From assembly GCA_963809895.1 (NCBI GenBank), contig CAWELD010000003.1, positions 3,200,001 to 3,264,000 on the forward strand: DNA of 64,000 bases, written 5' to 3'. This DNA is from an uncultured Gemmatimonadales bacterium. GTDB taxonomy: Bacteria > Gemmatimonadota > Gemmatimonadetes > Longimicrobiales > Gaopeijiaceae. Below are positions 13,159 to 33,733 of the stretch, one piece after another; within the stretch, counting starts at the first letter, position 1; each line of letters opens with the position of its first letter. The notes beneath the pieces were generated by a model. The model worked only from the letters and a program-made list of their open reading frames with translations, searched no databases and was not told the DNA's origin. The translations under genes were made by a program, and so were the position numbers.

Positions 13159-13472
13159 AAAATGCGGTGGTGCGGCCTGGGTCGCTGGCGCCGGACGAAG
13201 CCTTCGGAAAAGGGCGAGCGATCGGGTCGAGTGACCGCCTCCCCAGCCCCTCTTCATGGGTTGGCACCCTTCCCTTTCCCGACCCATTCTAAGCCGGCCA
13301 TGGCTTCGATCCCCGAGCTCCGGCAGGGGCTGGGTTCGGCTACCATCGTCGCCCCGGGGTCCAACTCAGCCTTCGAGAGGCAACGGCTTCCTCCGGCCTA
13401 CGGCTCCTCGCCGGGCTGCGGTACGTGGGCCATCGGTGATCACTCCGCAGCACCTCACGCACTCTGCATAAC
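13152..13472 (+). ncRNA. ORF-less structured cassette, copy 1 (putative ncRNA or ssDNA element)
   Basis: Bounded by GTTATGC/GCATAAC; nested stems CCCAGCCCCT/AGGGGCTGGG, ATGGGTTGG/CCGACCCAT and GCTGCGG/CCGCAGC. Confidence 0.55.
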
Positions 13473-13632
13473 AACAAGGCTTCCGGCTCCGCGCCCGCCG
13501 TGCACGGCGCGGCCTCCGCGCAACCGGCCCACGACCAAGTGGAAGACCCTGGCGAAGCCGGCAGCAACTCAGCGTAACCTGCGAGTCGAACGATTGGACG
13601 GGGGCCGGTTCGGAAGCCCCGTCACGTTATGC
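13466..13632 (+). repeat. attC-like site, family A (167 bp)
   Basis: GCATAAC-aacaa-GGCTTCCG...CGGAAGCC-ccgtcac-GTTATGC. Confidence 0.85.
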
Positions 13633-13941
13633 AAAATGCGTGGTGCGGCCTGGGTCGCTGGCGCCGGACGAAGCCTTCGGAAAAGGGCGAGCAATCGGGT
13701 CAGATGACCGCCTCCCCAGCCCCTCTTCATGGGTGGATGCCCTTCCCTTTCCCGGCCCATTCTAAGCCGGCCATGGCTTCGATTCCCGAGCTCCGGCAAG
13801 GGGCTGAGATCGGCTACCGTCGTCGCCCTGGGGTCCAACTCAGCCCTCGGCGGCCCGGCTTCCTCCGGCCTACACTCCTCGCCAGGCTGCGGTACATGGG
13901 CCATCGATGTCACTCCGCAGCACCCACGCACTCTGCATAAC
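13626..13941 (+). ncRNA. ORF-less structured cassette, copy 2
   Basis: Tandem diverged copy of 13152-13472 with indels that break any shared reading frame. Confidence 0.55.
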
Positions 13942-14100
13942 AACAACGCTTCCGGCTCCGCGCCACGCCTGAACGGCGCGGCCTCCGCGCAACCGGCCCA
14001 CGAGCAGGTGGAAGACCCTGGCGGAGCCGGCAGCAATCAGCGTAACCTGCGAGTCGAACGATTGGACGGGGGCCGGTTCGGAAGCCCCGACACGTTATCG
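13935..14100 (+). repeat. attC-like site, family A
   Basis: GCATAAC...GCTTCCG...CGGAAGC...gacac-GTTATCG. Confidence 0.85.
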
Positions 14101-14173
14101 GGCAGCGCGGAATCGGCGTGTCTGGAAGTACGGTTGTACGATGCTCGGCAACTGAGACGTGCGTGGTGTTCTC

Positions 14174-14341
14174 ATGGCAAACAGCGCGAAATCCCTTCAG
14201 AGAGTCCTGGCGGCCTTGGTGGGGTTGGGCCTTGGTGGTGTGGGGTCTGGCGTGTTGGTCATGCTGTGGGGCATCGCAGGTTGGCCCCTCTTGATTCCAA
14301 TGCTCGTGGGCCTCGCAGCGGGCGCGATGTTCGGGGATTGA
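14174..14341 (+). CDS. small membrane protein cassette (possibly truncated by a nonsense codon)
   Basis: Two TM segments; the frame continues GIGLLARALAGL after the TGA; cassette ends GTTATCGGGC/GCCCGATAAC. Confidence 0.5.
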   Translation: MANSAKSLQRVLAALVGLGLGGVGSGVLVMLWGIAGWPLLIPMLVGLAAGAMFGD

Positions 14342-14423
14342 GGAATCGGCCTCTTGGCCCGTGCCCTCGCTGGGCTGTAGTCGACCGGAGTCGGTGGATT
14401 GGGGAATGGTGGGCGGCGCCGCC

Positions 14424-14513
14424 CGATAACAATGCGGGTGGCGCCTGCGCTCGCTACGCTCGCTCCGGGGAACACGGCACGCGATGCGCGCCGCGCCGGA
14501 CCCTTGGAACGTT
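14424..14513 (+). repeat. attC-like site, family B, with its right box split by an IS1111
   Basis: CGATAAC...GGGT...ACCC-ttggaac-GTT, then the IS; ATGTGC resumes at 16019. Confidence 0.75.
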
Positions 14514-16018
14514 GATATGGAAGGGCCTGTCAAGGTATGTAGCGCGAAGTGTGGGGAGCCCGGGGCGGCTTCGACGATGAATCCTGCTGATATTCGATGG
14601 TTGAGCCCGTCAGGGCCCAGAGCATCAGGAGACGGATTCGTCGGGAGCTGGCTGGAGTCTATTCGCGGGGATTGGGCGCTGGGCCGTACCCCGTAACGTT
14701 TTCGGGCGTTCTCCTATCGTGCCCCGAGACTCCCCAATGTTCGCTCGCTGGTTGAATCAGGCGGCGCGGCTCACCTCCTGAAGCTGAGAGACATCCACGT
14801 CGCGGAGGACGGCCCAGAGGAAGCCGACCATCTCGCGGGCGACGGCCGTGGCGGCCACCGGCCTGGGCTTCTTGGCGGCGAGTCGATGGAAGAGAGTGTA
14901 GAGGCGATGCTGACACTTCCAGGCGTGCTGAATGACGGCGGGATCCTGGCCGCGTTGACGGCGGCGGAGGGACGCGCCGACGGCCGGGCGCTTCCGATAG
15001 TGCCATGCAGCCTGGATCAGGATATGGCGGCACACGTGTGTTGCCGGCCTTGGTGATGGCGCCCAGGCGTCGCCGCTCTCCCGAGGAGTGCTCGCTGGGG
15101 ATGAGGCCGACGTAGGCCATGAGCTGGCGCGGACTCTCGAAGCGGCGAACGTCGCCGAGCTCGGTAGCGAGGACCATGGCGGCCTGGGTCTTGAAGCCGC
15201 GGAAGCAGCGGAGGCGGTCGACCAGGGGCTTGTAGCGCGGCGTGAGGGCGAGGTCCTCGATGCGACGGTCCAGCTCGTCGCGTCGCTGGAGCTTGTACTC
15301 GAGCAGCGCGAGGTACTCCGAGAGCACGATCTGGTCTTCGTCGGCGAAGGTGCCGGGGTCGAGCATGTGGCGGATCCAGTCGAGGTGGCGCACGGTCCAG
15401 TGGGTGCCCTCGCGATAGATGAAGCCTCGGCGGCGCATGAACTTGAGGATATAGTGGCGCGATTTGACGATCTCGCGCTGGAAGGTCTCGCGGCAGCGGA
15501 CCAAGTCGCGCACCCGCTCGTCGGCCTCGGTGGGCACGTGAATGAGGACGAGGCGGTCGTCACGGAAGTCACGAGCGATCTTGATGGCGTCGCGGCGGTC
15601 GGACTTGCGGTGCTCGCCCGGCCGCGCGCGGGATCAGCGAGGGCGCGGCCAGATCGCAGGGCGACGCCCCAGTCGACGAGGGAGCGCTGGAGCACGTAAC
15701 CCGCACCCGAGGCCTCGTAGCAGGCGCGCACGGACGCCCTCGGCTTGGAGCCGCTGGAAGTAGCGGCGGACTTTGCGGAGATCGTAGGGGAGGCGGTCGA
15801 CGCGCATGGGCTCCGGATCACGGTCCCGGAACACGGCCGCAGTGACGGAATCCTTGTGGACGTCGAGGCCGACCCAGAAGATTGGGGCACGATGGGATGA
15901 TGACATGGGGCTGGTCTCCTGTCGGTTGCGGCTCGACCGCCGCATGTGGCGCTGGCGTTGCCTCTCACGCGACGCTAATCCACGACATCCGCGGGAGGCC
16001 AGCCCTTCCATCGTGTCT
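14514..16018 (-). mobile_element. IS110-family, IS1111-type element
   Basis: Sub-terminal IRs ATGGAAGGGC (14517-14526) / GCCCTTCCAT (16002-16011), 3 and 7 nt from the ends; no target duplication; ~240-bp non-coding region downstream of the transposase. Confidence 0.85.
14757..15906 (-). pseudogene. IS110 transposase, frameshifted
   Basis: VGLDVHKDS, CYEASG, DRRDA and GLIPSEHSSG...GAITKAGN motifs spread over three frames. Confidence 0.85.
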
Positions 16019-16071
16019 ATGTGCAATCGCGGGGACGAGAGGTCGCGCGAAGCGGAGCGTTCGACCTGGCG

Positions 16072-16569
16072 ATGATGACAGGAGATGCCTGGGTGGTCGA
16101 GTTTGACCGTAGGAAGCCGTTCGGAATCACGGTGGCCATGGTGTTCCTCGGCCTCCTTGCCAGTCTCGGGTCGGTTGCCGGCCTCGCCAATCTCCTCACG
16201 TCACTCTTCGGCGAAGGGCCGTTCCTAATGAACGGCGTCATCGTGCCAAGGCACGAGTTTCTCCGTTTCGCTCTTCCATTCATTCTATTCTACCTCAGTC
16301 TGTGCACTCTGGCTGGGGCCGCCGCGTGGTCCATCCATGTTGAGCATCCACGTTCCAGGCCCTTGTTGTTGATCTATGCGGCTTCTCTCGTCTTCACGAG
16401 CCCGTGGTCCCTTGCCCTTGGAGTGCCAGCCGCGGACGTGGCCTCATCAACGCTGTCCGCAGCCTTGGTCACAGGATTGGTCTGGTTCTACTTGTATCGA
16501 AAGAAGGCGGTGGTTCAGTACTACGACGCGATCAGGATCGCCCAGATGGCGCGCCCGGAACGACACTAG
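16072..16569 (+). CDS. hypothetical membrane protein (cassette)
   Basis: RKPFGITV...; four TM segments; single ORF filling the cassette. Confidence 0.7.
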   Translation: MMTGDAWVVEFDRRKPFGITVAMVFLGLLASLGSVAGLANLLTSLFGEGPFLMNGVIVPRHEFLRFALPFILFYLSLCTLAGAAAWSIHVEHPRSRPLLLIYAASLVFTSPWSLALGVPAADVASSTLSAALVTGLVWFYLYRKKAVVQYYDAIRIAQMARPERH

Positions 16570-16601
16570 CGGTGGCGCCTCAACGCAATTGTGGCGACCG
16601 C

Positions 16602-16761
16602 ACATAACAACAGGGCGTTCCGGCTCCGGCCGCAGGTGCGGCCTCCGCTGCAACCGGCCCACGAACATGAGGAAGACCCTGGCGCAGCCGGCAGCAATCA
16701 GCGTAACCTGCGAGTCGAACGGTTGGAGCGGGGCCGGTTCGGAAGCCCCTTCACGTTAAGC
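16602..16761 (+). repeat. attC-like site, family A
   Basis: ACATAAC...CGGAAGCCccttcac-GTTAAGC. Confidence 0.85.
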
Positions 16762-17017
16762 GAAGTCGCGACAATCCCTGGTTGGCGCGCATGTTCACCG
16801 TGAGTGGAGGTATGCTATCCGGACTTGGCGATTCCTGGCCGTAGCGACCGCCTGGGTCACTCCCGCCCTTGGCGCTTGCACGGCCGACGAGGAACCGACC
16901 GAAGACACGGCTCCTGCGGCGCGTCTTGAGGAGACGCTGCGTGTCGGATCGGTAGAGGGAGATCTGTCCTTCGGTACGATCCTGAACGTTGCCCGGGGAC
17001 CGGGAGGCCGGACGTAT

Positions 17018-18001
17018 GTGGTCGAGCCGGTCGGGTCTCGAGTCTCGATCCTAGATTCGGACGGGACACGGGTCGGAACGGTCGGTGGCGCCGGCATGGG
17101 CCCAGGGGAGTTTGCTCGTCCAGGTCGGATGGGATGGGTCGGGGACACTCTCTGGATCTTGGACGGGGCGAACTACCGGTTCTCGCTCTTCTCCCAGGCC
17201 GGCGAGTTCATCGGCGAGGTCAATCCGCAGATCGCCGAGCGGCAAGACCCTTCCGACATACCTCCTCGACCCGTGGGTCTCTTGCCGGGCGGCGTCCTCT
17301 TCGCGAGGACTTCGGTGCCCTCCCATCTGGTGGCGCAGGGTGTCATCGACAGCCTCACGTACTACTCGCTCGATCGGGACGGCGCCATTCTCCGAGAGCT
17401 GCATCGCACGCGGGCTACGCCGCCGCTATGGATTCACAACCCGGACTCGCGGAATCCGATCTCGGGCCGCTTCAAGGCACAGCCTTTCGTCACAGGGGAA
17501 CTTGTCGTGCCCAGCCCCGATGGCGCGTTCGTGACCGCCACGGCGAGTGAGGGTCGGACGGTCGTGACGAAGATCAGCCTCGACCTCGATACGATGTGGA
17601 GTCGCACTCTTCCTGTGAGTCCACCCCCACTCTCGGAAGCCACGATCGACAGTCTCATTGAAGCCGAGTCTGAGAGCTTCGCGCGGTCTCCGGCGGCTGA
17701 GGGCGCCACAGCAGCTCGTATCGCGACGTGGGTACGAGATGCTCTGGTGACTCCGGAGGTCAGGCCCGGATTGGAGGAGATGGTCGTCGGTCACGACGCC
17801 AGCATCTGGATCGCTCATCCGGACACTGCCGGAGCTCGGCAGTGGGTGGTTCTCTCGAGCGACGGGAGGGTCCAAGCGAGAGCAGCCCTGTCGCGAGAGG
17901 TGACGGTCTTCGATGGGTGGGAGAACGGACTGATCGGCGTAGTCCACGACGCTCTCGATGTCCCTCGGATCGTGAGGTACGAGCTACGAGGCGGAGGCTA
18001 G
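17018..18001 (+). CDS. 6-bladed beta-propeller lipoprotein (frame open upstream to ~16808; start uncertain)
   Basis: GGAGMGPGEF, GDTLWILD and DALDVPRIVRY; upstream in-frame lipobox LGAC. Confidence 0.75.
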   Translation: MVEPVGSRVSILDSDGTRVGTVGGAGMGPGEFARPGRMGWVGDTLWILDGANYRFSLFSQAGEFIGEVNPQIAERQDPSDIPPRPVGLLPGGVLFARTSVPSHLVAQGVIDSLTYYSLDRDGAILRELHRTRATPPLWIHNPDSRNPISGRFKAQPFVTGELVVPSPDGAFVTATASEGRTVVTKISLDLDTMWSRTLPVSPPPLSEATIDSLIEAESESFARSPAAEGATAARIATWVRDALVTPEVRPGLEEMVVGHDASIWIAHPDTAGARQWVVLSSDGRVQARAALSREVTVFDGWENGLIGVVHDALDVPRIVRYELRGGG

Positions 18002-18094
18002 CGGGGTTCGACGGACCGACCGCTGCTTCCTCCTCCAGAGGTCGGGCGCGTTGGCGCCGAAGGCCGGCGCGATGTGCGTCTCGATTGCGACCTC

Positions 18095-18258
18095 GCTTAA
18101 CTGCGGGCTTCCGGCTCCGCGCCGCTGAACGCGGCGCTCCGTCCCAACTGGCCGCGGCCGTCAGCGGAAGGGTCTGGCGGTCAGGCTGCGGGCGAACGTA
18201 CTCTGGCCACCTGAAGCACTGCTGACGGGGCCAGTTCGGAAGCCCTGACACGTTATGC
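18095..18258 (+). repeat. attC-like site, family A variant
   Basis: GCTTAAC-tgc-GGGCTTCCG...CGGAAGCCC-tgacac-GTTATGC. Confidence 0.85.
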
Positions 18259-18566
18259 CCAATGTGGAGGCGCGTCGTGATCGCGGGCACCGGAGGAAGC
18301 CTTCGATAGGTCGCGAGCGAGAAGGTCAGTTGACCGCCTCCCCAGCCCCTCTTCAGGGGTTGGCACCCTTCCCTTTCCCGACCCCTTGAGCCAGCCATGG
18401 CTTCGATCCTCGAGCTCCGGCTTGGGGCTGGGTTCGGCTACCATCGTCGCCCCGGCGCGCAACCCAGCCTTCGAGAAGCAAGGGCTTCCTCCGGTTTCGG
18501 CTCGTCGCCGGGCTGCGGTACGCGGGCGATCCCGACCACTTCCCAGCGCCTCCCCACAGGCATAAC
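18252..18566 (+). ncRNA. ORF-less structured cassette, copy 3 (more diverged)
   Basis: Same core as 13152-13472 with compensatory stem changes. Confidence 0.55.
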
Positions 18567-18729
18567 AACAAGGCTTCCGGCTCCGCGCCACGCCGTTGAA
18601 CGGCGCGGCGCTCCGTCCCAACCGTCCCACGACCAAGCGGAGGACCCTGGCGGAACCGGCTGCTCTCAGCGTACCCTGCGAGTCGAACGGTTGGACGGGG
18701 GCCGGTTCGGAAGCCCCTTCACGTTAGGC
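18560..18729 (+). repeat. attC-like site, family A (170 bp)
   Basis: GCATAAC-aacaa-GGCTTCCG...CGGAAGCC-ccttcac-GTTAGGC. Confidence 0.85.
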
Positions 18730-18772
18730 GTAATGTTCCGTGCCAAGTTATCCATTGTGACGGAGACAACTG

Positions 18773-20338
18773 GTGGTGCTTGAGCCCTTGCTAATTCCAA
18801 ACGTATCTTTGGAACCCCTTCGCGTTCTGTCAACATACGAGGGGGGCTTTGGTCGGGTTTACATCGTGGAGGCAAGCGACGGAGAGCGTTATGCCCTCAA
18901 GACACTGAAATGGGAGCTTGGCCAAGACCGTGCCACCCTACGCGACGAAGCAAGCAAGCTCGCCGACGTCACGAATCATGCAAATGTCGTCGAGATCATT
19001 GGTGTCTTCTGGCATCGAGACGATCCCTTCATCGGTATGCCATACTATCCCGCGACACTTCGCACCTACTTCTCCCAAGCCCACCTCTCCCTCGACCGCC
19101 TGACTAGTGCCATTGCCGATGTTGCCCGAGGTCTCGCTCATCTCCATGACCTTGGCGTGCTACACTTGGATCTCAAACCTGAGAACGTTCTTGCGTCTGC
19201 AGACGGCCACTTGGCCATTTCGGACTTCGGCTTATCTGCCGCCCTACCGCCGGTTACAGCCTCCAGCAAACATCGGCAGCTCTTCATGTCTGGTGTCACT
19301 GGCACCTTGGCGTATATGAGTCCCGAACACTTCGTCACGAGGCGTCTTAGCGCGAAGTCCGACGTCTTCGCACTTGGCACCATGATGTTTGAGGGGCTGA
19401 CGGGTCGTCATCCATTCCTTGCCGGATCACCAGAGGAAACGGTGCAGCATATCCTTCTGGTGAACCCGGCCTTTCAGCTTGCCGAGCGGCTTCGGCTGCC
19501 TGGGGTCTTGCGGGAACTTTGCCTGGCCTGCCTATCTAAGGCTCCGGAGCAGCGTCCGACCGCTCGCGAGGTGGCAACCTGTCTCCAAGGAAGGACCGGC
19601 CTTCCCACAGGGGCCAAGACACAAGACGTGGACCCATCTCGTCTGGTGAACAAGGCCAGCACGCTTCGCGCTGTGGGCAGGGTGGACGAGGCGCGCCAGA
19701 TACTTGAGGACTGTCTTCGCCACCACCCGTGGTATCTTTCGGCGCTCATCGGCCTTGCTTACACCCACTGGGACCAACACAACATACCGGAGGCGGCAGC
19801 AGTACTTGAGACTGCCCTTGAAGCCGAGGAGTGGATTGGGACCCCCGAGGAGATGGGAAACCTGCTCACCAATCTATCGTTCTACTATCTCAGTAGTGAT
19901 CCGGAGAGCAGCATACGTTTTGCCCGGCATGCCGCGGCCATCAATGAGAATGATTGGCAGGCGCTCGGCAATCTAGCCGAGGCATGCCGCCTCCTTGGCT
20001 CCCGTCGTCAGGGTTTGTTGGAGGAGGGACTGGATGTCTGTCGTCGCGCGATGAAGATCAACCCTGATGACTTGAAGCTGAAGGTGACTTACGGAGGTCT
20101 GCTGCTGGAGGCCAGTAATGCTGTCGAACTGTGGCCATTTGTTACGTCTCTGATCAACACTCATGGTGCTGATGACGTGCCGCTCCGCTTCTTGCTAATC
20201 GCTACCTTGGCATTCTACCGCAAGTTCGAAGACGCCGAACGGTGGCTGGCGCCTATGCGTCAGTACTCCAACCTACAACCGGTAGTGCAGGCAGCAGAGG
20301 AGGAGATCGCTCGGCGAAAGGGGGATGGACGCGTGTGA
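18773..20338 (+). CDS. Ser/Thr protein kinase with C-terminal TPR repeats (cassette)
   Basis: GGFGRVY, ALK, HLDLKPENV, DFG, GTLAYMSPE and SDVFALG; helical TPR-like tail. Confidence 0.9.
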   Translation: MVLEPLLIPNVSLEPLRVLSTYEGGFGRVYIVEASDGERYALKTLKWELGQDRATLRDEASKLADVTNHANVVEIIGVFWHRDDPFIGMPYYPATLRTYFSQAHLSLDRLTSAIADVARGLAHLHDLGVLHLDLKPENVLASADGHLAISDFGLSAALPPVTASSKHRQLFMSGVTGTLAYMSPEHFVTRRLSAKSDVFALGTMMFEGLTGRHPFLAGSPEETVQHILLVNPAFQLAERLRLPGVLRELCLACLSKAPEQRPTAREVATCLQGRTGLPTGAKTQDVDPSRLVNKASTLRAVGRVDEARQILEDCLRHHPWYLSALIGLAYTHWDQHNIPEAAAVLETALEAEEWIGTPEEMGNLLTNLSFYYLSSDPESSIRFARHAAAINENDWQALGNLAEACRLLGSRRQGLLEEGLDVCRRAMKINPDDLKLKVTYGGLLLEASNAVELWPFVTSLINTHGADDVPLRFLLIATLAFYRKFEDAERWLAPMRQYSNLQPVVQAAEEEIARRKGDGRV

Positions 20339-20409
20339 TGTCGATATCATCCGAGCGCAAGGCGGTGTCGCGATCATCATGCTAACGCCGACCAGGCACT
20401 GAACACTAC

Positions 20410-20567
20410 GCCTAACAAATGCGTTGCGCCTACGCCGCGCAAGCGCGGCTCCGGAGAACACCGGCGCAGCGGGGCTGGTGGCCCGCAGGAAGCGGACGGA
20501 GTGATCGCCTGGAGCGCACCGTTCGCAGGTTGTGATGCGCCGACGTCGCAACTCTTGAACGTTAAGT
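20410..20567 (+). repeat. attC-like site, distinct family (158 bp)
   Basis: GCCTAAC...GTTGCG...CGCAAC-tcttgaac-GTTAAGT. Confidence 0.75.
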
Positions 20568-20655
20568 GTCATGCCGCGGCTGGCCGAACAAACGCCGAAA
20601 GGCTATCTTTCCCAAACAGAACGTAACCGTCCCCACTTCCGTCGAGAGGATCGAA

Positions 20656-21447
20656 TTGGCTGATCGGAGCGACATCGAGTGGACCGACGCTACGTGGAAC
20701 CCTACGACGGGTTGCACAAAGGTCTCACGCGGGTGTGACAACTGCTACGCCGAGGCCTTGGCACATCGCCTTCTTTCTGACACCTATCGTCGTCGACTCC
20801 CGGTAGTCCAGTCCCCTGAGAATCTGGCTGATCCGTTTGCAGTTCGGGTCTGGCCAGACCGTCTAGGAATTCCCCGGTCGTGGAAGGCGCCGCGGCGGGT
20901 GTTCGTGAATTCCATGTCAGATCTGTTCCACGCAGACGTGCCGGAACTCTTCGTTAGGCGGTGCTTCGAGGCGATGCTCGAAGCGGACTGGCATGAGTAC
21001 CAGATCCTGACAAAGAGGCCGTCGCGGGCTGCCAGATTCGTCGCTCGCAACTCTGATCTCTTCGAGCAGAACGGACTTCCAGCCCATATCTGGATCGGAA
21101 CGTCGGTGGAGGATCAGGCCGTTTCCCATCGCATCCGACACCTCCTCGCGGTGCCGGCAGCCGTACGATTCCTCAGTTGTGAGCCGCTTATCGGGGCTCT
21201 GTCCATTGCTGGCGATCTGGAGGAGCCGGACCCTGGAGTCCACTGGGTTATCGCGGGTGGCGAGAGCGGTGTCGGGGCGCGTCCAATGGAGCTGAGTTGG
21301 GCCCGCCGCCTCCGAGATGAGTGTGACGCGCTAGGGATCCCGTTTTTCTTCAAGCAGTGGGGAGGTAGGACCCCCAAGGCCGGAGGACGGGAACTCGATG
21401 GACGAACGTGGGACGAGTATCCCGAGAGTCGGCTTGCGTCGAAGTAG
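20656..21447 (+). CDS. DUF5131 / phage Gp37-Gp68 family radical-SAM-like protein
   Basis: IEWTDATWNPTTGCTKVSRGCDNCYA, FVNSMSDLFH, WVIAGGESG and FFFKQWGG; TTG start after GAGAGG. Confidence 0.9.
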   Translation: MADRSDIEWTDATWNPTTGCTKVSRGCDNCYAEALAHRLLSDTYRRRLPVVQSPENLADPFAVRVWPDRLGIPRSWKAPRRVFVNSMSDLFHADVPELFVRRCFEAMLEADWHEYQILTKRPSRAARFVARNSDLFEQNGLPAHIWIGTSVEDQAVSHRIRHLLAVPAAVRFLSCEPLIGALSIAGDLEEPDPGVHWVIAGGESGVGARPMELSWARRLRDECDALGIPFFFKQWGGRTPKAGGRELDGRTWDEYPESRLASK

Positions 21448-21454
21448 ATCAATC

Positions 21455-25653: not shown

Positions 25654-25686
25654 GGTGTGCTCGCGTGCGCCCGAGAGGCGATTCAT

Positions 25687-26232
25687 ATGAGGATTAGGTC
25701 CCTCAAAGGCCTTCTCGCGAAGTACGATGCGGCCCCAGGACGGGTGCGTGCCTACTTCCCTCACTTCAAGCAACTCGCTGAAGACTTCCCGTATGACGTA
25801 GTCCTTGCCTACGTGTTTGGTCAGGTCGAGCTAGCGCAGAACATGACGCTGTATTGTGGGATCGTGAAGCTGCATCGCGCCGATGCGAGCTTGGCTCGAA
25901 AGGTGGTCGACTCCCACCACATGACCCGACCGGGGTTCAGGGAGAAGGTCAAGGTGGTTTACGGCACGCCAATCCCCGCCGATATCACCGCGAAACTCGA
26001 CAGGGCCGAGAAGACGCGAGACAAAGTGATGCACGGGAAGGCCTGTACGGACGCTGAGAAGCGGAACGCGTTGGGCTACGTTCTAGAGTATGCCGAGGAC
26101 TTGAATGCCCACCTAGAGGAGTTGGCCGGCATTCAGCCGTTCGGGGACCTTCGTGGCTTCAAGGGACGAGCCAAGAGTCTCGATAAGAAAACGACCAGGT
26201 GGATCCTGAAGGGTATGGGTTTCGGCGCATGA
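25687..26232 (+). CDS. hypothetical protein with a HEPN-like R-x4-H motif
   Basis: TRDKVMHG; helical; same cassette as the OLD gene. Confidence 0.65.
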   Translation: MRIRSLKGLLAKYDAAPGRVRAYFPHFKQLAEDFPYDVVLAYVFGQVELAQNMTLYCGIVKLHRADASLARKVVDSHHMTRPGFREKVKVVYGTPIPADITAKLDRAEKTRDKVMHGKACTDAEKRNALGYVLEYAEDLNAHLEELAGIQPFGDLRGFKGRAKSLDKKTTRWILKGMGFGA

Positions 26233-26240
26233 GCAGCGTC

Positions 26241-26399
26241 ACTTAACTGAGTGTTGCCGCCTTCGTTCGCTTCGCTCACTTCGGTGAATCACGGCCCCGA
26301 ACTCTTCTGGCTGTTGGAGCAGTAGCTGGAGCGTGAGCTGACCGGTGTGCCAGGCCGGCTCGGTTTTCGGGCCGCGCCGGCAACACAATCACGTTATAT
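26241..26399 (+). repeat. attC-like site, family C long form (159 bp)
   Basis: ACTTAAC-tga-GTGTTGCCG...CGGCAACAC-aatcac-GTTATAT. Confidence 0.85.
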
Positions 26400-26482
26400 G
26401 AAACTCGGAACGAGCATGTGGAGGGGACGGACCTGAGGGTGTATACTCTGGTGAACCTCATGTTGTCCGGGAGGGCTGAGCC

Positions 26483-26713
26483 ATGAACGACGAGTCTACA
26501 AAGGATGAGGTGGTCGAGGAGTTGAACCGATTGGCCGAAGCCGATCGGCGTCGGGTCCTGGACTACGCTCGTTCACTCGGCCGCCGCGTTTCGAAGGGCG
26601 TGGCCGGCGACTCACTTCTGTCGCTGGCTGGGTCGTTACCAGAGGCGGAGGCATCGGCCATGGAGGCGGCCATTGAGGATGGGTGTGAGCGGGTGAACCT
26701 CGGTGCCTGGTAG
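26483..26713 (+). CDS. putative VapB-like antitoxin
   Basis: 76 aa, overlaps the downstream PIN gene; duplicated at 34718. Confidence 0.7.
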   Translation: MNDESTKDEVVEELNRLAEADRRRVLDYARSLGRRVSKGVAGDSLLSLAGSLPEAEASAMEAAIEDGCERVNLGAW

Positions 26714-27221
26714 GGCACTTCTCGATACGAGTGCCGTCGTCGGGCTCCTGCGCGGCGACAAGTCTGCAGTGAAGAAGGTCGGATCTCTGGACGAGGCATT
26801 CACGAGCATCGTGGTGATCGGCGAACTCCTTTACGGAGCTCGCCTCTCGACGGGTGCAGAAACGAACCTGGCGCTGGTTGCCTCGTTTGCGTCGTCGATC
26901 ACCGTCCTCGTTGCCAAGGAACTGGACGTGTCTCTATCGAAGGTGCCGGAACTTAGGGCAAGGTTCGAGCGGGCCCGCGACATTGTGGACGCGGCAACCC
27001 CCGCAGACGCCTTCCGGAGAGGTGTCCGCTATTCGATCCAGGACGCCCTCGAGGAAGGTCTGGGGTCCCCCGAGGCGATCGAACGCCTGGTCGTACAGAT
27101 TTGCTACAGGGCTGCCGATCTGAGTGTGTTGTTGGACTCGGAGGGGAGTGCGTTGTCCGACTACTCCGCCGAGCTCCGTGTCGAATCGGATGTCTCAGGT
27201 CTTGGCGGCGAGGGTATGTAA
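26703..27221 (+). pseudogene. VapC/PIN toxin N-terminus fused in frame to an unrelated gene fragment
   Basis: LLDTS...IVVIGELLYG; diverges from the 34938 copy at 26910/26911. Confidence 0.7.
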
Positions 27222-27252
27222 TGGCGGGCTGAGCCTTGGGGCGGGCCAACAG

Positions 27253-27272
27253 CAGATAAAAGGAGCTATCTG
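27253..27272 (+). repeat. minimal cassette boundary site (GTT mutated to GCT)
   Basis: CAGATAAA-AGGA-GCTATCTG; the duplicate cassette at 33727 begins GTTATCTG. Confidence 0.7.
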
Positions 27273-27334
27273 AAGCTGGCTTCGCAACCCGCACTCACGC
27301 GTCGCGACGGGAACTGACTGGGAGAGTCTGGCGT

Positions 27335-27358
27335 GAGTATACTAGTATCGGTATACTC
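27335..27358. promoter_or_regulatory. palindromic operator/promoter of the RelE-HTH TA cassette
   Basis: GAGTATAC-N8-GTATACTC containing TATACT, immediately upstream of the toxin; nearly conserved in the second copy. Confidence 0.5.
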
Positions 27359-27387
27359 GTTCATGAGCAGACGCGACGCCCAAGCCG

Positions 27388-27732
27388 GTGGTCTGGCTCG
27401 GATCGGCCCGATCGGACCTACGCTCGTTCCCGGAGGAGGTCCGTACAGACGTGGGCTTCGCCCTCTGGGTGGCACAACGGGGTGGACGGCCCGCCCAGGC
27501 GAAGACGCTCAAGGGAATCGTCTCCGGTGCGGGCGTGCTCGAGCTGGTCGAGCGCCGCGACGGGGACACCTATCGAGTGGTGTACACAGTACGGTTCGCG
27601 GATGCGGTGTACGTACTCCACGCATTCCAGAAGAAGTCGAAGCGCGGAATCAAGACGCCGAAGCATGAGATCGACCTGATTCGGTCGCGGCTCAAGGCCG
27701 CGGAAGAGCACTACGGTGGGAGCGGACGATGA
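27388..27732 (+). CDS. RelE/HigB (Gp49-like) toxin, copy 1 (5' +1 indel relative to copy 2)
   Basis: WLGSARSDLRSFP...YRVVY...YVLHAFQKKS. Confidence 0.8.
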   Translation: MVWLGSARSDLRSFPEEVRTDVGFALWVAQRGGRPAQAKTLKGIVSGAGVLELVERRDGDTYRVVYTVRFADAVYVLHAFQKKSKRGIKTPKHEIDLIRSRLKAAEEHYGGSGR

Positions 27733-28058
27733 CCAAGGACCAGATTGAGGAGAGTTCGGGGAACGTATTCGCGGACCTAGGTCTCGCCGAGGCGGAAGAA
27801 CTCCATACAAAGGCTCAGCTTGCGCATCGGATCGGCGAGATCGTTCGCGGTCGCCACCTCACGCAGGCCGAGGCTGCGGACGTGCTTGGTGCGACGCAGC
27901 CGATCGTCTCGAGGCTGATGCGTGGCCAGCTGCACGGATTCTCGCTAGAGCGTCTCATGCGGTTCCTCAACGCTCTGGACCGCGACGTTGAGATCGTGGT
28001 CCGGCGCCGGCCACGGAGTCGAGATCACGGCGAGACACGGGTGAAGGTCACCGGCTGA
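27729..28058 (+). CDS. XRE/HigA-type HTH antitoxin, copy 1
   Basis: SSGNVFADLG, LTQAEAA and FSLERL. Confidence 0.85.
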   Translation: MTKDQIEESSGNVFADLGLAEAEELHTKAQLAHRIGEIVRGRHLTQAEAADVLGATQPIVSRLMRGQLHGFSLERLMRFLNALDRDVEIVVRRRPRSRDHGETRVKVTG

Positions 28059-28150
28059 CCCGCCGGGTAACGACAGTCACCCGCTTGGAGAGACGCCCGA
28101 GTTGGGTTCGTTTAAGCCGCTCTGGTTCTCCGACCAACGAAGCCATCAAC

Positions 28151-28314
28151 AGATAACTCCAGGCTCCCGGCTCCGCACCGCTGAACGCGGCGCTCCGTCC
28201 CAACTGGCCTCGGCCGTCTCGGAAGGGGGTTTCGCATCGGCTGCGAAGGGACGTATGCTGGCCGCATGAAGCCGTGCTAACGGGGGCCAGTTCGGAAGCC
28301 CCTTCACGTTAGAC
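28151..28314 (+). repeat. attC-like site, family A variant
   Basis: AGATAAC...GGCTCCCG...CGGAAGCC-ccttcac-GTTAGAC; similar to the site at 18095. Confidence 0.85.
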
Positions 28315-28362
28315 GGAATGGCATCGTCAACGAGTGGACCATCTGGCTTGGAAGCGGAGTCT

Positions 28363-28857
28363 ATGGAGGTAAGTAGAGCGAACTCGGCCGACCAACAGGT
28401 CGCAGAGGCCCTTCGCTGGATTAGCGAGATCTTCGATCGCATCGGCGCACAGTACCAAGTCGTGGGCGGACTCGCCGCGCGTGCGTATGGGGCGACTCGT
28501 CCCCTGATCGACCTCGACTTCTATGTCCGAGCCGAAGATCTGCCCCGAGTATTGGCTTGTGTGGGCGACTCATGTGTTTGGGGACCAGAGCATTTCAAGG
28601 ACGAGAACTGGGACCTGACGTTCGCCAAGCTCGAGAGGCGGGGAGTTCAGATTGAGTTGGCCGAAGCGGAAGGAGCTCGATACTACAGTCCGGGCACCGG
28701 TGAGTGGCTGGACCAGGACATCGCATTCCAGGACTCCGAGCGACACACGGTGCTTGGGGTGGAGATACAAGTGATGCGCAGGGGCCAGCTCGTCGCGTAC
28801 AAGCGAGCCTTGGATCGCCCGGTAGACAGGCTGGACCTCAGTGAGATAGCGGAATGA
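28363..28857 (+). CDS. nucleotidyltransferase-superfamily protein
   Basis: VVGGLAARAYG..R...DLDF and YKRALDRPVDRLD. Confidence 0.75.
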   Translation: MEVSRANSADQQVAEALRWISEIFDRIGAQYQVVGGLAARAYGATRPLIDLDFYVRAEDLPRVLACVGDSCVWGPEHFKDENWDLTFAKLERRGVQIELAEAEGARYYSPGTGEWLDQDIAFQDSERHTVLGVEIQVMRRGQLVAYKRALDRPVDRLDLSEIAE

Positions 28858-28931
28858 GCGTGGGGCGATGCCGAGGAAGTAGCCCGACTGAGAACCGGAT
28901 CCAACAGGCGGGTCGCCGACCATGCCACTGC

Positions 28932-29023
28932 GTATATCAAACGGGTACCGCCTTCGCTCACTACGTTCGCTCCAGAGAACACGGCTCGCGTTGCAGCCGC
29001 GTCGGTACCCCGACACGTTATCA
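28932..29023 (+). repeat. attC-like site, family B (left box degenerate)
   Basis: GGGTACCG...CGGTACCC-cgacac-GTTATCA; core similar to the site at 14424. Confidence 0.75.
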
Positions 29024-29113
29024 GACACACGAACAAGAAGGCGGAGTGGAGCCGGGGCGCGTTGGCGGGGTAGAAGGCCCATTGCGCTGCTCAGATTGCC
29101 ATGGAGGTCTCAA

Positions 29114-29344
29114 ATGCGAACCGGTGCCGAAGAGCTCGAATTGGCGGTTCTCTCTCTCCCGGCGGGAGATCGTGCTCGGTTGGCGAGACGCCTGATCGAG
29201 AGCCTTGATCAGGACCCCGAGATCGAAGCGGCTTGGGAGAAGGAAATCGCTCGACGGGTAGCCAAGATCGAGTCCGGCGACGCGACACTCGTTGCTGCGA
29301 AGGACGTGTTCTCGGAGGCGCGTCGCCTGATCGATGCGTCGTGA
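29114..29344 (+). CDS. addiction-module antitoxin
   Basis: LSLPAGDRARLARRLIESLD...AWEKEIARR. Confidence 0.85.
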   Translation: MRTGAEELELAVLSLPAGDRARLARRLIESLDQDPEIEAAWEKEIARRVAKIESGDATLVAAKDVFSEARRLIDAS

Positions 29345-29631
29345 CCCTCCGGTTCGAAGCGGAAGCAGCTGAGGAGTTCTACCGCGCGATCCAGTACTAC
29401 GAGGGCCAGTCTCCAGGCCTCGGTGCGGAACTCCTCGCCGATCTCGAGCGCTTGGAAGGCCTGCTCATCGCGAATCCTGAGATGGGCAGTCCTGGTCCAA
29501 TACACACCCGCCGTGTGCTTCTCTCACGGTTTCCATTTGTTCTGGTCTACCGGCTCTTTGACGGTGAGCCGGTCGTCCTCGCCTTCGCTCATCAACGGAA
29601 GAAGCCAGGGTATTGGCTAGATCGGGTCTGA
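29341..29631 (+). CDS. ParE/RelE-family toxin
   Basis: AIQYYEGQSPGLG, RFPFVLVY and AHQRKKPGYW. Confidence 0.85.
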   Translation: MTLRFEAEAAEEFYRAIQYYEGQSPGLGAELLADLERLEGLLIANPEMGSPGPIHTRRVLLSRFPFVLVYRLFDGEPVVLAFAHQRKKPGYWLDRV

Positions 29632-29640
29632 GCGCTGTAC

Positions 29641-29665
29641 CGGTCGGTACCCTGGAACGTTAAGC
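29641..29665 (+). repeat. truncated attC-like site (right half of family B)
   Basis: GTCGGTACCC-tggaac-GTTAAGC. Confidence 0.65.
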
Positions 29666-29721
29666 GCCATGACGTGGACGGAGTGCAGGAGGCAGCATTC
29701 GTCTCGAAGGAGGAGGTGTGT

Positions 29722-29949
29722 GTGACCCGGCTCCAAGGTCAGTACTTAGCGTTCATCGCTGTCTATACCAAGATCAATGGCAAGGCGCCTGCGGAAGCTG
29801 ATTTGCAGAGGTACTTCAAGGTGACCCCACCGAGCGTCCACGATATGATTCTGCGGCTTGAAGCATCGGGATACGTACGCCGCACGCCGGGACGGGCGCG
29901 ATCGCTGGAGGTTCTCATACCAGAGGAGGAGGTGCCACAACTTGAATAG
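29722..29949 (+). CDS. LexA/MarR-like winged-HTH protein
   Basis: QGQYLAFI...PAEADLQRYFKVTPPSVHDMILRLE..G. Confidence 0.75.
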   Translation: MTRLQGQYLAFIAVYTKINGKAPAEADLQRYFKVTPPSVHDMILRLEASGYVRRTPGRARSLEVLIPEEEVPQLE

Positions 29950-30321
29950 TACCTGTCGGAGGTCGGCACGCATCCGATGGTGTGAAGGATGTGGTCTCGT
30001 GAGGTCCGACAAGAGCTTCAATCGGATAGGGCTCATTGGATAGGATCCGCATTCCCTTCGGGTCGAGAATCGACGTCCCGCTGGCTCAGAAGCATCGTGA
30101 GCTGATCCGTGAGCATACGTTCATCGATCCTGAGACTGAACGTGCCTTGAACCTGGCAGTCTCTGATGGGGCGAACCTCCTGGCCCGATTGAGAATGGAG
30201 GACCTCGACGATCTCATTAGGGGGATCCGTAGATAGGAAGGCGAGTTGGCTACAGTATGGATGGTGGGTGGAGGAGGTCGGCCCGTTCTCGTTACGGCTT
30301 ATCCATGGAAGGGGGAGACGC

Positions 30322-30546
30322 ATGAACGAACTAGACACGGTTGTGCTACGACGCGCTCTGCCGGACTTCGGTCTGGTGGAAGGTGATGTCGGAGCCATCG
30401 TCCATGTCCACGCCCCCGATGCATTCGAGGTTGAATTCGCGACCGGTGAGGGAACGACGCTGGCTGTCGTGACGCTCCGGGCAGCCGACCTGCGGCCGAT
30501 CGACGCTCACGAGTTGCTTCACGTCCGCACGGTCGCGCACGGCTGA
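30322..30546 (+). CDS. DUF4926 domain protein
   Basis: ELDTVVL...GLVEGDVGAIVHV....FEVEF. Confidence 0.8.
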   Translation: MNELDTVVLRRALPDFGLVEGDVGAIVHVHAPDAFEVEFATGEGTTLAVVTLRAADLRPIDAHELLHVRTVAHG

Positions 30547-30589
30547 CCCGGCGGATGTCGACGGTGGGACCTGCACGGACAGCGGCAGC

Positions 30590-30684
30590 AGCGAACTGAA
30601 AAGTTGCCGCCGCCGTTCGCTCACGCTCACTTCGGTGAAGCACGGCCCTGTTCGGGCCGCGCCGGCAACTCCGACACGTTAGAA
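30590..30684 (+). repeat. attC-like site, family C
   Basis: AGTTGCCG...CGGCAACT-ccgacac-GTTAGAA; core similar to the site at 22587. Confidence 0.8.
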
Positions 30685-30687
30685 GAA

Positions 30688-31173
30688 ATGGGCCGTGTCA
30701 CGGGCGAAGTCGAAGGAGTAGCGGTGTTGAACAGTGCATTTCGCCTTGCGACGGTTTCTCTTCTGATCGTATGCTTCGGAGCCAAAGGCACTCAACTCTC
30801 CTCGTTACCCGCCTGTTTCGACGTGACGTCCTCGCCCTGGAACCTGCGGGCCGATGAGGTGCCTCGTGCGGCCCGACTGACGCTGACTTCCGAGCCATTC
30901 TACTTCGAGCTCTACGGCCCCGATCCTCTCGGATTCCGCGCGACACTCTTCTTCGAAACCGGCGACTCTGCCTCCTTGGCCTGGCATCTCTCCGAGGGGA
31001 ACGACACTCTGTCCGCGTCGTTCGGGGTCCACGAGCGCTATGCCCTGATCGTGACTCCCGCCGGCGATCGGACTCTCGACGGCGAACTGCGGTGGGAAGA
31101 CGACGGCGGGGGAACCGCAGTGTCATCTGTGCTGCTCCATCCTGTGGGTTGCGCCGAGGTGGCTAGACGATGA
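30688..31173 (+). CDS. hypothetical exported protein (cassette)
   Basis: Single ORF between GTTAGAAG and CTTCTAAC. Confidence 0.55.
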   Translation: MGRVTGEVEGVAVLNSAFRLATVSLLIVCFGAKGTQLSSLPACFDVTSSPWNLRADEVPRAARLTLTSEPFYFELYGPDPLGFRATLFFETGDSASLAWHLSEGNDTLSASFGVHERYALIVTPAGDRTLDGELRWEDDGGGTAVSSVLLHPVGCAEVARR

Positions 31174-31317
31174 CGGTCAACGCCCGGCGGTCGAGGGAGA
31201 CCTGACTACCCAAGTTGAGGAGAGTCAGCGGTCAGCTTCGTCCGACCGCGGCCCACTCCTTCTAACAGGAAGGCTTCCGGCTCCGCGCCGCTGGCGCGGC
31301 CTCCGTCCCAACCGGCC

Positions 31318-32781
31318 TCCATGAGAAGGCCCGCCGTGTCAAGCTCGGTCGCATCATAGTTCGAGTCGTGCCCTCGCCGTGCCTCCATTCGCAGTCCTGG
31401 TCGGCCGCTCGGGCCTGCTGCATGCTGGTGTCCGTCCCTGCCGGGCGCTGCAATCCCTTTGACGGTCTTGAGAGACCTGGGCCGGTAGCGCAGTCACCCG
31501 GACAGGGCGTCGAGCGCGTCTCGTGTCGTGAAGCGACCTCGTGGTCGTCGGAACCTCCGAGTGTGATCGGTGCGATTCGTGTCGGTTCAGGGGATCAGGC
31601 GGCGACCTCCGCGCCGGCCTCCGGGACCTCCGTGTCGGCGTTGTGCAGCGGCTCGTAGACCTCACCCGTGACCCAGAGTCGGTGAAGGAGCACGGCCAGT
31701 TTGCGGGCAACCGCGATGATGGCCCTCCTCTTGGCCGCCGGCCCGCCTCGTTCCGCGAGCCGGAGTCCCCAGCGTCTCAGATCGGTGTCCGGTCCGAAGG
31801 GTCCGAGGACGTAGTGGGCCGACTGCACGAGGAGGGTGCGGAGCATCCGGTCGCCGGCCTTCGTGGTCGAGAGCTCCGGACTCGACTCGCCTGACTGGTG
31901 CCGTCGAGGCACAAGCCCCAGGTAGGGGCCCACAGCCCGGCTCGTGGAGAACCGATCCGGGCTCTCGAGCGTCAGCAGGTAGGTGAGCGCCGTGAGCGTT
32001 CCCACGCCTTGCACCTGCGTGAGCACCCTCGTCTCCGGATAGTTCGTGCGCGCCAGCTCCTCGATCCAGCGATCCATCTCTCTGATCTGCGACGTGAGCT
32101 CGGCGATCGTGTCGAGGACCGGGAGCAACGCCGCGTACAGCGGTTCGGGGATATCCTCCTCGACCTTCCAGTGGAAGCTCTCCGTCGAGCAGGGCGGCAA
32201 CCGACCACCCATCGCCTTGACGGTCGAGCGCATGTGATTGACCAGCGCCGTCCGGGCCTCGACCAGGGCGCTCCGGGACCGGATCACCGCCAGGTCCGCC
32301 TGCGCGTCCTCGCTCCGGTGGATGACCGGTGCCAGTAGCTTCGGATCGAGCCGTCCGACCCGAGCCAGGTACTCGGCATCGGCGCGGTCGCTCTTCTGAT
32401 CGTTCTCGTAGATGAACCGGAGCTTGCGAGGATTGGCGACGATCACCTCGTGGCCCAGGCCGTGGAGCAGCCGACTGATCCACGGCGAGTGGGGCCCCAC
32501 CTCGAGAACCACCCGCGTCGGCTCCTCGCGCTCGAACCGACGGGTCAGCGCCGGCGCCGAGGTCGAGAGCCGCGATTCCTCGACCACCTCGCCCGACGCG
32601 TCCACCACGCACAGGTGACTCACTCGGTCGCTCACGTCCAATCCGATTGTCCGCTCCGGTGCCTTCGCCGTATCTTGCATTCGGCCAACCTCCGTGCCTT
32701 GGGCTTCGAGCCCGCTTCTAGTTTGGGGCGCCCGAAAGGGTAACCCCGACTCCGCCGGGGGTTGGCCTTCTCATTTCATCC
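31318..32781 (-). mobile_element. IS110-family, IS1111-type element
   Basis: IRs ATGAGAAGGCC (31321-31331) / GGCCTTCTCAT (32764-32774), 3 and 7 nt from the ends; no target duplication. Confidence 0.88.
31595..32680 (-). CDS. IS110 transposase, intact
   Basis: IGLDVSD, VLEVG, KSDRADA, GLVPRRHQSG and AVARKLA. Confidence 0.92.
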   Translation of the reverse strand: MQDTAKAPERTIGLDVSDRVSHLCVVDASGEVVEESRLSTSAPALTRRFEREEPTRVVLEVGPHSPWISRLLHGLGHEVIVANPRKLRFIYENDQKSDRADAEYLARVGRLDPKLLAPVIHRSEDAQADLAVIRSRSALVEARTALVNHMRSTVKAMGGRLPPCSTESFHWKVEEDIPEPLYAALLPVLDTIAELTSQIREMDRWIEELARTNYPETRVLTQVQGVGTLTALTYLLTLESPDRFSTSRAVGPYLGLVPRRHQSGESSPELSTTKAGDRMLRTLLVQSAHYVLGPFGPDTDLRRWGLRLAERGGPAAKRRAIIAVARKLAVLLHRLWVTGEVYEPLHNADTEVPEAGAEVAA

Positions 32782-33052
32782 CACGAGCAGCTGGAAGACC
32801 CTGGCGGAGCGGGCGGCACTCAGCGTCACCTGCGAGTGAGCGGTTGGGACGGGGGCCGGTTCGGAGGCCCTAGAACGTTATCAGCCATTGCCCGGACGAG
32901 AGGATCGCGGGAGCGTGAGTGAGGCATGCTGCGCGCCGCGCGCCTCTGGCCGGGTGCGGCCCGGAGGTCGAGGATCTTGCGAGCATGAGTGCCCGGAGCA
33001 AGTGTTGGCGAACGAGGAGGGCCCTCCCGAGCGAGTGAGGGGTAATCAAAGC

Positions 33053-33280
33053 ATGAACTACCGAGACCGAATCACCATCGAACCAGGCAAGCGGAGCGGC
33101 AAGCCGTGTATCCGTGGCATGCGGATCACGGTTTCGGACGTGCTCGACTACCTGGCGTCCGGGATGACGGAGGACGAGATCCTGGCGGAGTTCCCAGATC
33201 TCGAGAAGGACGACATCAAGGCGGCTCTTGCGTTCGCAGCGGACCGGGAGCGTCGGTTGATGTCGGTGCCTCCAGCATGA
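33053..33280 (+). CDS. DUF433 antitoxin-like protein
   Basis: RITIEPGKRSGKPCIRGMRITV. Confidence 0.88.
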   Translation: MNYRDRITIEPGKRSGKPCIRGMRITVSDVLDYLASGMTEDEILAEFPDLEKDDIKAALAFAADRERRLMSVPPA

Positions 33281-33284
33281 TCCT

Positions 33285-33617
33285 GTGAAGCTCCTTTTCG
33301 ATCAGAATCTCGCTCCCCGCTTGGCTCGCGATCTCGCCGACATCTTCCCGGGCTCGGTGCACGTTCGTGGCCTGGGAATGGCACAGGCCTCGGATCGACA
33401 GATCTGGGATCACGCGAGAGAGGAGGGCTTCGTGATCGTGTCGAAGGACAACGACTTCCAGCAAATGAGCTTCGTATTCGGCGCTCCGCCGAAGGTCATC
33501 TGGATCCGCCGCGGGAACTGCAGTGTGGAAGAATCCGCAGGGGTCCTGCGGGAGAACGCAGCTCGGATAGGCGAGTTCGAGATCGATCAAGTGGCTACCT
33601 ACCTTGTCCTGTCCTGA
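33285..33617 (+). CDS. DUF5615 PIN-like toxin
   Basis: MKLLFDQNL, IVSKDNDF and PPKVIWIRRGN. Confidence 0.88.
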   Translation: MKLLFDQNLAPRLARDLADIFPGSVHVRGLGMAQASDRQIWDHAREEGFVIVSKDNDFQQMSFVFGAPPKVIWIRRGNCSVEESAGVLRENAARIGEFEIDQVATYLVLS

Positions 33618-33631
33618 CAGACGGCAACGGC

Positions 33632-33733
33632 TGATAACAGGCTGGGTTGCCACTCGCGTCGGCCTGCGGCCGGTGCGGCCCTTCGGGACACCCGCCCCGC
33701 GGGCGGGCGTCGGGAACCGCCGGAACGTTATCT
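33632..33733 (+). repeat. attC-like site, distinct family (102 bp)
   Basis: TGATAAC...GGTT...AACC-gccggaac-GTTATCT. Confidence 0.75.

Follow-up and report, generated by a model that had tools for sequence, protein, structure and literature searches.

Canonical attC sites, the folded recombination sites of integrons, carry two or three extrahelical bases (EHB), spaced about 6 bp from each other, on the R''-L'' arm. These bases and the I2 helix of the integrase IntI are regarded as the pair that enables recombination of single-stranded DNA in one orientation (PMC5027507, PMC7790495). Lengths of 57-141 bp are reported for attC, and the centres of chromosomal attC can be branched (Nivina 2016, PMC5027507). 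In the same study, aadA7 and oxa2 sites with deleted EHB remained substrates of IntI1 and only the strand choice was lost; spacer and centre likewise affected this choice. Cury 2016 (PMC4889954) noted 21 recombinases without the IntI region beside few attC matches and concluded that they were not IntI, and Ghaly 2022 (bioRxiv 2022.02.06.479319) requires the IntI domain. Here a locus is described in which both I2 and EHB are missing, yet all cassettes have one orientation. It lies in a stretch of 64,000 nucleotides (nt), the window, of an uncultured Gemmatimonadales bacterium, which corresponds to positions 3200001-3264000 of contig C3 (CAWELD010000003.1) of the source genome (G000); site coordinates are window positions. 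The best protein matches carry Longimicrobiales or Gemmatimonadota names, which makes a host from that phylum likely. A gene for a tyrosine recombinase, P0001, is followed by about 22 kb of short same-strand genes of lower GC content with long structured repeats (Table 1). Judged from the sequence, these repeats quite probably terminate the gene cassettes of an array built like an integron, and the adjacent I2-less recombinase would recombine them as folded bottom strand.

The array contains 13 full sites (92-170 nt), one site split by an insertion sequence (IS) of the IS110 family, three half-sites and two hairpin-free junctions. Every site is on the + strand and reads TAAC-N4/5-(8-bp arm)-branched centre-(arm)-N5-AC-GTT, and the full sites fall into 5-6 families by global identity, in agreement with the layout shared by at least five families of 92-170 bp that was described in the initial annotation. 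A strict grammar (TAAC, N3-6, at least 7/8 arm pairs, N6-8 ending in AC, GTT) gave 8 matches in the whole 5.33-Mb genome, both strands searched, all of them inside the array and on the + strand, while 300 dinucleotide shuffles of 13466-33733 gave a mean of 0.013 and a maximum of 1. Arms described as perfect over 8-9 bp are so in 7/13 full sites (13466, 18095, 18560, 22587, 26241, 28932 and 30590), the remaining six having 5-7 of 8 arm pairs, and the arms are without an extra base in all full sites but S4. The TAAC start is kept in most sites and lost in two, where 28932 reads GTATATC and 30590 reads AGCGAAC. ACGTT is present at 16/16 right ends of the array, and 8/13 full sites exceed 141 nt. 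The proposed covariation of the arms was recovered in 34 sites from other genomes, where the arm helix is 99.2% paired with 7/8 pairs compensatory and the covariation is 0.48 versus 0.15 after shuffling, a control inflated by relatedness, and at most 0.09 in slid registers. An unpaired central spacer and a variable terminal structure are present as in canonical attC.

The cores follow RYYYAAC and GTTRRRY with complementary cassette ends, and some 18 cassettes share one orientation. With G/TT taken as the crossover, the left core fits the start of its own cassette in 12/16 cases and that of the next cassette in 2/16; the 12 consist of 10 cassettes found automatically and two whose rows, shifted by one position, were corrected by hand. 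Of the remaining four, two agree in 3 of 4, IS110 interrupts one and the last has decayed. Cassette 1 begins at 13153 without a hairpin, directly after CATAAGGAG, the core of a putative attI, and CCTTCGGAAATC, about 60 nt upstream of this core, is common to the relative L085. TAA(A0-2)GGAG(T/C)TA has three occurrences in the genome, namely the attI (13143-13158) and two junctions inside the array (23825 and 27254), both of which show the left core, then AAGGAG, then the next cassette; the attI is thereby tied to the array. Loss of two A's from the attI by homopolymer error was considered and dropped, since the relative L107 has the same ATA-N4-GTT spacing. The uniform hairpin layout first assumed for the whole interval fails at these two junctions. 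They are like the delta-attI cassettes known from class 1 and class 2 integrons, where the attC is replaced after the left core by attI spacer and GTT and whose origin is attributed to recombination of R'' with the left box of attI (PMC12901181), and unlike them in the 6-nt spacer AAGGAG, in the non-IntI recombinase and in the presence of two such junctions in one array. The two remnants suggest occasional cleavage by P0001 of the left core and of a second attI position, 6 nt away from the crossover, and hint that the enzyme may not always avoid a second strand exchange. In the public run X3, one contig follows S6 without difference and then enters the start of cassette 1 at GTTA, and a contig of run X2 departs from the window sequence at the end of S4; these contigs are direct, if thin, evidence that cassettes were re-ordered at the crossover.

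The P0001 gene adjoins the array, and its product has an N-terminal alpha/beta domain (about 65 residues, weakly HARP-like), a SAM_4 domain and a catalytic domain with intact R222, K247, H313-x-x-R316, H339 and Y348. It passed the cut-off of NF040815 (227 bits, cut-off 220) and failed that of TIGR02249 (211 bits, cut-off 265). The IntI insert of about 41 residues containing the I2 helix is missing, the K250-H313 span being 64 amino acids in P0001 and 62-66 in 34 family members versus 104-107 in 15 IntI, and P0001 aligns in two pieces to VchIntIA (2a3v); the claim that this site type accompanies a recombinase without I2 is upheld. In a quick tree, which gives grouping and not order of events, the 34 I2-less proteins form one group (Shimodaira-Hasegawa-like approximate likelihood ratio test 88) beside IntI and an IS91-type recombinase, and the two Xer-like proteins of the source genome fall outside it. 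An alignment-based model of P0001 (predicted local distance difference test, pLDDT, 92.5) has a separate alpha/beta domain at residues 16-80. Foldseek gave no structural match to this N-terminal domain, returning recombinase folds only, and the best solved-structure match of P0001 is the archaeal Xer 4a8e. As a lead only, residues 10-85 matched Bacteroidota clusters exclusively in the protein atlas (0.81-0.83). An AbrB/MazE-like gene and a small open reading frame (ORF) at 12485-12959 separate the recombinase gene from the attI, which lies about 760 nt from the gene versus 41-259 nt in relatives. XerC/XerD/XerA and CTX-phage-type integration likewise do without I2, and folded single strands can be Xer substrates (PMC5027507, PMC7790495); unlike Xer/dif, with its sequence-conserved inverted arms around a 6-8 bp spacer, the sites are not dif-like, their arm sequence varies freely, their centre measures 50-130 nt and the genome has two Xer-like genes of its own. 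IS91-associated tyrosine recombinases are also like P0001 (44% identity, no I2, near in the tree), but unlike it they are multi-copy, are followed by a transposase-like gene and have no array of their own.

A canonical integron in the same genome served as control. Located on contig C10 (C10:600939-644217, L189-L191), it is co-oriented, has an attI near C10:602191 and comprises 16 or more attC sites whose left arms bulge at positions 9 and 16, with distal decay; an IS splits one attC near C10:606786. A covariance model of 44 IntI sites, none from G000, which was built here and is not the published IntegronFinder model, scored 12 C10 sites at 26-58 bits and the window sites at 15.5 bits or less, as expected from the initial annotation. 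Inversely, a model of 34 I2-less sites, none from the window, scored the 13 full window sites at 33-68 bits and the C10 sites at 20 bits or less. Within the phylum, a bulge at position 8-10 was found in 0/38 detected sites of 7 I2-less loci (1/39 with S4, which the detector missed) versus 171/178 sites of 21 IntI loci; the detector penalises bulges on either strand alike, and each set holds a few chance matches. For other phyla the numbers were 3/126 at I2-less loci versus 3/47 in upstream background.

Other features do not set the sites apart. In both classes the right spacer exceeds the left, with an offset mode of +3 for I2-less sites as well as for IntI sites from this phylum and from the source genome itself, and the first reading of the asymmetric spacer as the replacement for bulges is not supported. 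AC precedes GTT in 33/38 sites of this lineage, 44/126 in other phyla (CC in 40) and 15/178 beside IntI, and C before GTT is common to both classes; ACGTT, first called invariant and read as the distinguishing strand cue, is thus near-invariant in this lineage only. Spacer and ACGTT may contribute to strand choice but do not distinguish the class. The unusual length stressed at first is real in the window, but simple hairpins of 60-80 nt with the same outer grammar occur beside P0001-family enzymes in Desulfitobacterium and Nitrospirae loci, and long branched centres are a lineage trait and not class-defining. The array resembles canonical, including sedentary chromosomal, integrons in its cores, the G/TT crossover, the unpaired spacer, the paired arm and the variable centre, in the toxin-antitoxin and defence-like cargo, in the attI next to the recombinase gene and, in other phyla, in a bottom-strand mismatch bias; co-oriented intI is also known among canonical arrays. 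It is unlike them in lacking EHB at 9 and 16, in an unbroken arm that ends in a branch point or mismatch, in an A following the left core and A/C-C preceding GTT, and in a recombinase without the IntI insert and with an extra N-terminal domain. Like CALIN (clusters of attC sites lacking integron-integrases), it has no IntI nearby, yet unlike CALIN its sites are non-canonical and have their own recombinase and attI. Since I2 and EHB, two defining traits of integrons, were not found, the system is not classed as a canonical integron despite its integron-like working.

A motif inside the arm sets the sites of this lineage further apart. CTNCG begins at position 12-17, just inside the arm, in 11/13 window sites and 27/30 sites of relatives versus 2/170 IntI sites, and a second copy is usually present after a side hairpin. 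Its bottom-strand form is C-GNA-G, extended to GCGGAGC in most family A sites. GCGGAGC belongs to a group of very stable mini-hairpins of DNA (PMC13037366), and it may fold as such in these sites. The three-base-loop register pairs better than the tetraloop register (28 versus 4 in the window, 65 versus 3 in relatives), and CTNCG as an RNA tetraloop was rejected on this ground. In other phyla, 92 of 117 top-strand mismatches are A.C and 3 are G.T, so the bottom strand folds better there.

More generally, 80 GTDB loci with a P0001 homologue gave 87 sites in 286 kb downstream, whereas their upstream controls gave 1 site in 608 kb on the other strand and 0 on the same strand; the locus filter was fixed after the data were seen, and the same filter was used for the controls. 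A site is present in 27/42 loci having at least 1.5 kb downstream. A hairpin-free start of the first cassette 41-259 nt behind the gene was found in 21 other loci, 3 of them phylum relatives, and arrays occur without any IntI match in four genomes that are 95-97% complete (G015, G050, G058 and G060). Directly behind a 5'-truncated P0001-family member annotated TnpF, tet(X3) was observed in L160:6001-8160 (FJ012881.1) and in L161 (Acinetobacter plasmid). It is bounded like a first cassette, which would start with the GTTA at L160:6865 and end in a TAAC-A that follows the stop by about 20 nt; its ends agree only in the 4-nt core, no right half-site follows, and the left half-site after it has only a 14-nt match to the collected sites, so that this is a lead only. 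On a Chryseobacterium plasmid (L162:13100-13260), a 148-nt element with perfect 14-bp ends reaching AAC and GTT has three copies in an I2-less array and is possibly a small element nested at sites. In G028:C1 there are seven copies (L111-L116) of an IS91-like element with a tyrosine recombinase 44% like P0001, one of them inside a canonical IntI array just after intI; these were rejected as I2-less integron members and left out of the class and its counts.

The proposed working of the array is as follows. Each site has an R box (TAAC/GTTA), an unpaired, right-longer spacer and an unbroken 8-bp arm in which pairing is kept and sequence is free, and in this lineage the branch point just inside the arm carries CTNCG. 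Cassettes have complementary ends, begin at G/TT and are all in one orientation; they would be excised as circles and inserted at the hairpin-free attI at 13152. P0001 would recombine the folded bottom strand, as suggested by arm covariation without sequence conservation and by the A.C bias in other phyla. With neither a flipped-out base nor an I2 pocket, strand choice would fall to structure where the arm meets the centre; removal of the bulges is reported to depolarise IntI1 (PMC5027507), and a one-way bulge-free array therefore needs another cue. The candidate cues are C-GNA-G loops in this lineage and G.T wobbles in other phyla. It is tentatively proposed that strand choice is set by such bottom-strand-only structure, which the extra N-terminal domain may recognise, and that the spacer and the base pair adjoining GTT contribute.

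Three other explanations were weighed. The sites could be an atypical attC cluster served in trans by the IntI of C10, with P0001 as bystander or helper. This IntI (C10:600939-601880) scores 388 bits, IntI1 is reported to recombine EHB-deleted sites (PMC5027507), one decayed IntI-type site is present in the distal array, and Cury 2016 judged attC-near recombinases without the IntI region not to be IntI (PMC4889954). But the C10 array has no site of the window type (best 20 bits), the same arrays and attI-like starts lie behind the I2-less gene in many phyla, including near-complete genomes without an IntI match, and the single cassette orientation is what IntI1 loses on sites without EHB, which together make service in trans unlikely. 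Activity of IntI1 on these sites, which the initial annotation named as refuting evidence, is a weak criterion, because IntI1 still recombines EHB-deleted sites (PMC5027507).

A slightly smaller probability is given to Xer-like use of double-stranded sites by P0001 in two strand exchanges, the arms being inverted binding sites and not a stem. The I2 missing here is tied to single-strand recognition by Escudero 2020 (PMC7790495), EHB loss is proposed to bias IntI1 to the double-strand path (PMC12901181), a second cut, 6 nt away from the crossover, is implied by the attI remnants, and folding energy has no strand bias in this lineage. Classical strand exchange poorly tolerates differing spacers, whereas the spacers here vary among sites and between sites and attI; moreover, arm pairing is kept while arm sequence is free, the centre ranges from under 60 to about 200 nt and the 92 to 3 bias of A.C over G.T in other phyla is against this explanation. 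That the fold acts as RNA, signalling processing, termination or retro-mobility within the transcript of the array, is very improbable: the sites are strongly structured right after stop codons and CTTCGG resembles the RNA UUCG tetraloop, but CTNCG prefers the three-base-loop register, sense-strand A.C mismatches would weaken an RNA fold, the sites have no Rfam match, and complementary cassette ends with the G/TT joint point to DNA recombination.

Folded cassette sites recombined by P0001 thus remain the preferred explanation, and several observations weigh against it. An intact IntI is present elsewhere in the genome, and a decayed IntI-type attC of the distal array (37117-37234), with both cores mutated and 80% similarity to the C10 sites, means that the two systems mixed at least once; cross-talk between them may occur in the source genome. 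The split of the two models is not clean, 9 sites of the relative L109 scoring 16-25 bits with the IntI-site model. The bulge of S4 is real: its extra G is at position 9 counted after AAC, where canonical sites have their first extrahelical base. Among 14 window sites one bulge is found in 1/14 and two in 0/14. Sequencing error was ruled out for S4, as contigs from two other public runs span its extra G without gap. CTNCG was found in only 4/99 sites of other phyla and cannot be a universal strand signal. Folding of both strands, suggested earlier as a check, gave no energy bias in this lineage (16 bottom versus 19 top of 35). The HARP match is weak, 21/111 family members reaching E of 0.1 or less in Pfam and P0001 not being among them, and the re-joined X3 contig is a single 270-nt record with depth 4.8. 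Sites are related within arrays and genomes, and their counts overstate independence.

Table 1. Features of the P0001 locus in window coordinates; scores are from the I2-less-site covariance model.
Feature	Position	Strand	Description	Score (bits)
P0001	11291..12394	+	tyrosine recombinase, 367 amino acids, same strand as array
Putative attI	13090..13158	+	hairpin-free, core CATAAGGAG/TTATGC, crossover after G13152; by position and pattern
Cassette cargo	13153..35348	+	toxin-antitoxin pairs, OLD-like ATPase/TOPRIM, DUF5131-TcmP pair, kinase-TPR, unknown ORFs
S1	13466..13632	+	family A1, perfect arm GGCTTCCG/CGGAAGCC	57.5
S2	13935..14100	+	family A1, 7/8 arm pairs	49.5
S3	14424..14517	+	family C, decayed arm 5/8	38.3
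IS110-family element	14757..15968	-	weak, frameshifted match; ends just before TATGTGC, start of S4-closed cassette
S4	16602..16761	+	family A1, extra G at position 9, left side	33.5
S5	18095..18258	+	family A2, perfect 9-bp arm	68.1
S6	18560..18729	+	family A1, perfect arm	53.4
S7	20410..20567	+	family D, 6-bp perfect core	57.6
S8	22587..22682	+	family B, perfect arm GGTTGCCG/CGGCAACC	52.2
Junction	23825..23842	+	hairpin-free, attI remnant replacing attC-like site, TAA + AAGGAG + TTA, ends cassette
S9	26241..26399	+	left part family B, long centre, perfect 9-bp arm	46.6
Junction	27254..27271	+	second attI remnant, TAA + AAGGAG + CTA
S10	28151..28314	+	family A2, one A.C arm mismatch (bottom strand G.T)	47.6
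S11	28932..29023	+	family C, perfect arm GGGTACCG/CGGTACCC, left core decayed	57.9
Half-site	29640..29665	+	family C right half, left half deleted
S13	30590..30684	+	family B, perfect arm, left core decayed	32.6
S14	31260..32883	+	family A1, centre split by IS110 (transposase 31595-32680, minus strand)
S15	33632..33733	+	family E, imperfect arm	44.7
Half-site	34612..34680	+	family A2 left half, deletion or duplication junction	24.9
Half-site	35335..35354	+	right half GGGAC-GTTA, end of duplicated toxin-antitoxin cassette

The toxin-antitoxin pairs of the cargo are Gp49/HTH_37 (twice), PIN, ParE and DUF433/DUF5615, and two toxin-antitoxin cassettes are duplicated at 98% in the other order (26446-28218 versus 33729-35340). 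Three homologous cassettes of about 470 nt (13153-13466, 13627-13935 and 18253-18560; body about 310 nt), two of which come first in the array, each have an open frame of about 100 codons in differing frames or strands, and may be non-coding or promoter cassettes. Two IS110-family elements (14757-15968 and 31330-32780) target sites, one at a cassette start and the other in a site centre. The older, decayed continuation of the array (35354-64000) has family A remnants at about 42500, 50771, 51876 and 62686 and many frameshifted ORFs. In this distal part, an 80% copy of the gene of the 28318 cassette lies at 43736, and one of the C10 cassette genes has a 73% similar counterpart near 42018-42325. 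Orphan single sites, one decayed family A and one IntI-type, were observed at C3:1892756-1892913 and C3:653418-653517, and family A sites are also present in G015 far from its array (L194, L195).

Literature searches, whose coverage excluded subscription papers, found no earlier description of the system; new here are the CTNCG motif inside the arm, the attI with two in-array remnants and the re-joining at GTT in a metagenome contig. It is likely that integrons can be built in a second way in bacteria, in this case beside an ordinary integron of the same genome, and a genome with both systems offers a ready test, two enzymes by two site types, of the need for I2 and of integron origin. A large cassette pool may be missed by standard tools, and the system is a possible platform for tet(X3) pick-up, as a lead only. 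Opinion is evenly balanced on the broader proposal that this would be a second widespread integron kind and a sister line with cassette capture from single-stranded DNA without I2. Its I2-less recombinase would read bulge-free hairpins by branch point or wobble through a structure-sensing N-terminal domain of its own. Such systems would range over Gemmatimonadota, Bacteroidota, Bacillota, Nitrospirae, Ignavibacteria and some archaea, would run largely apart from canonical integrons even in one cell, and would be mostly invisible to IntI-based searches.

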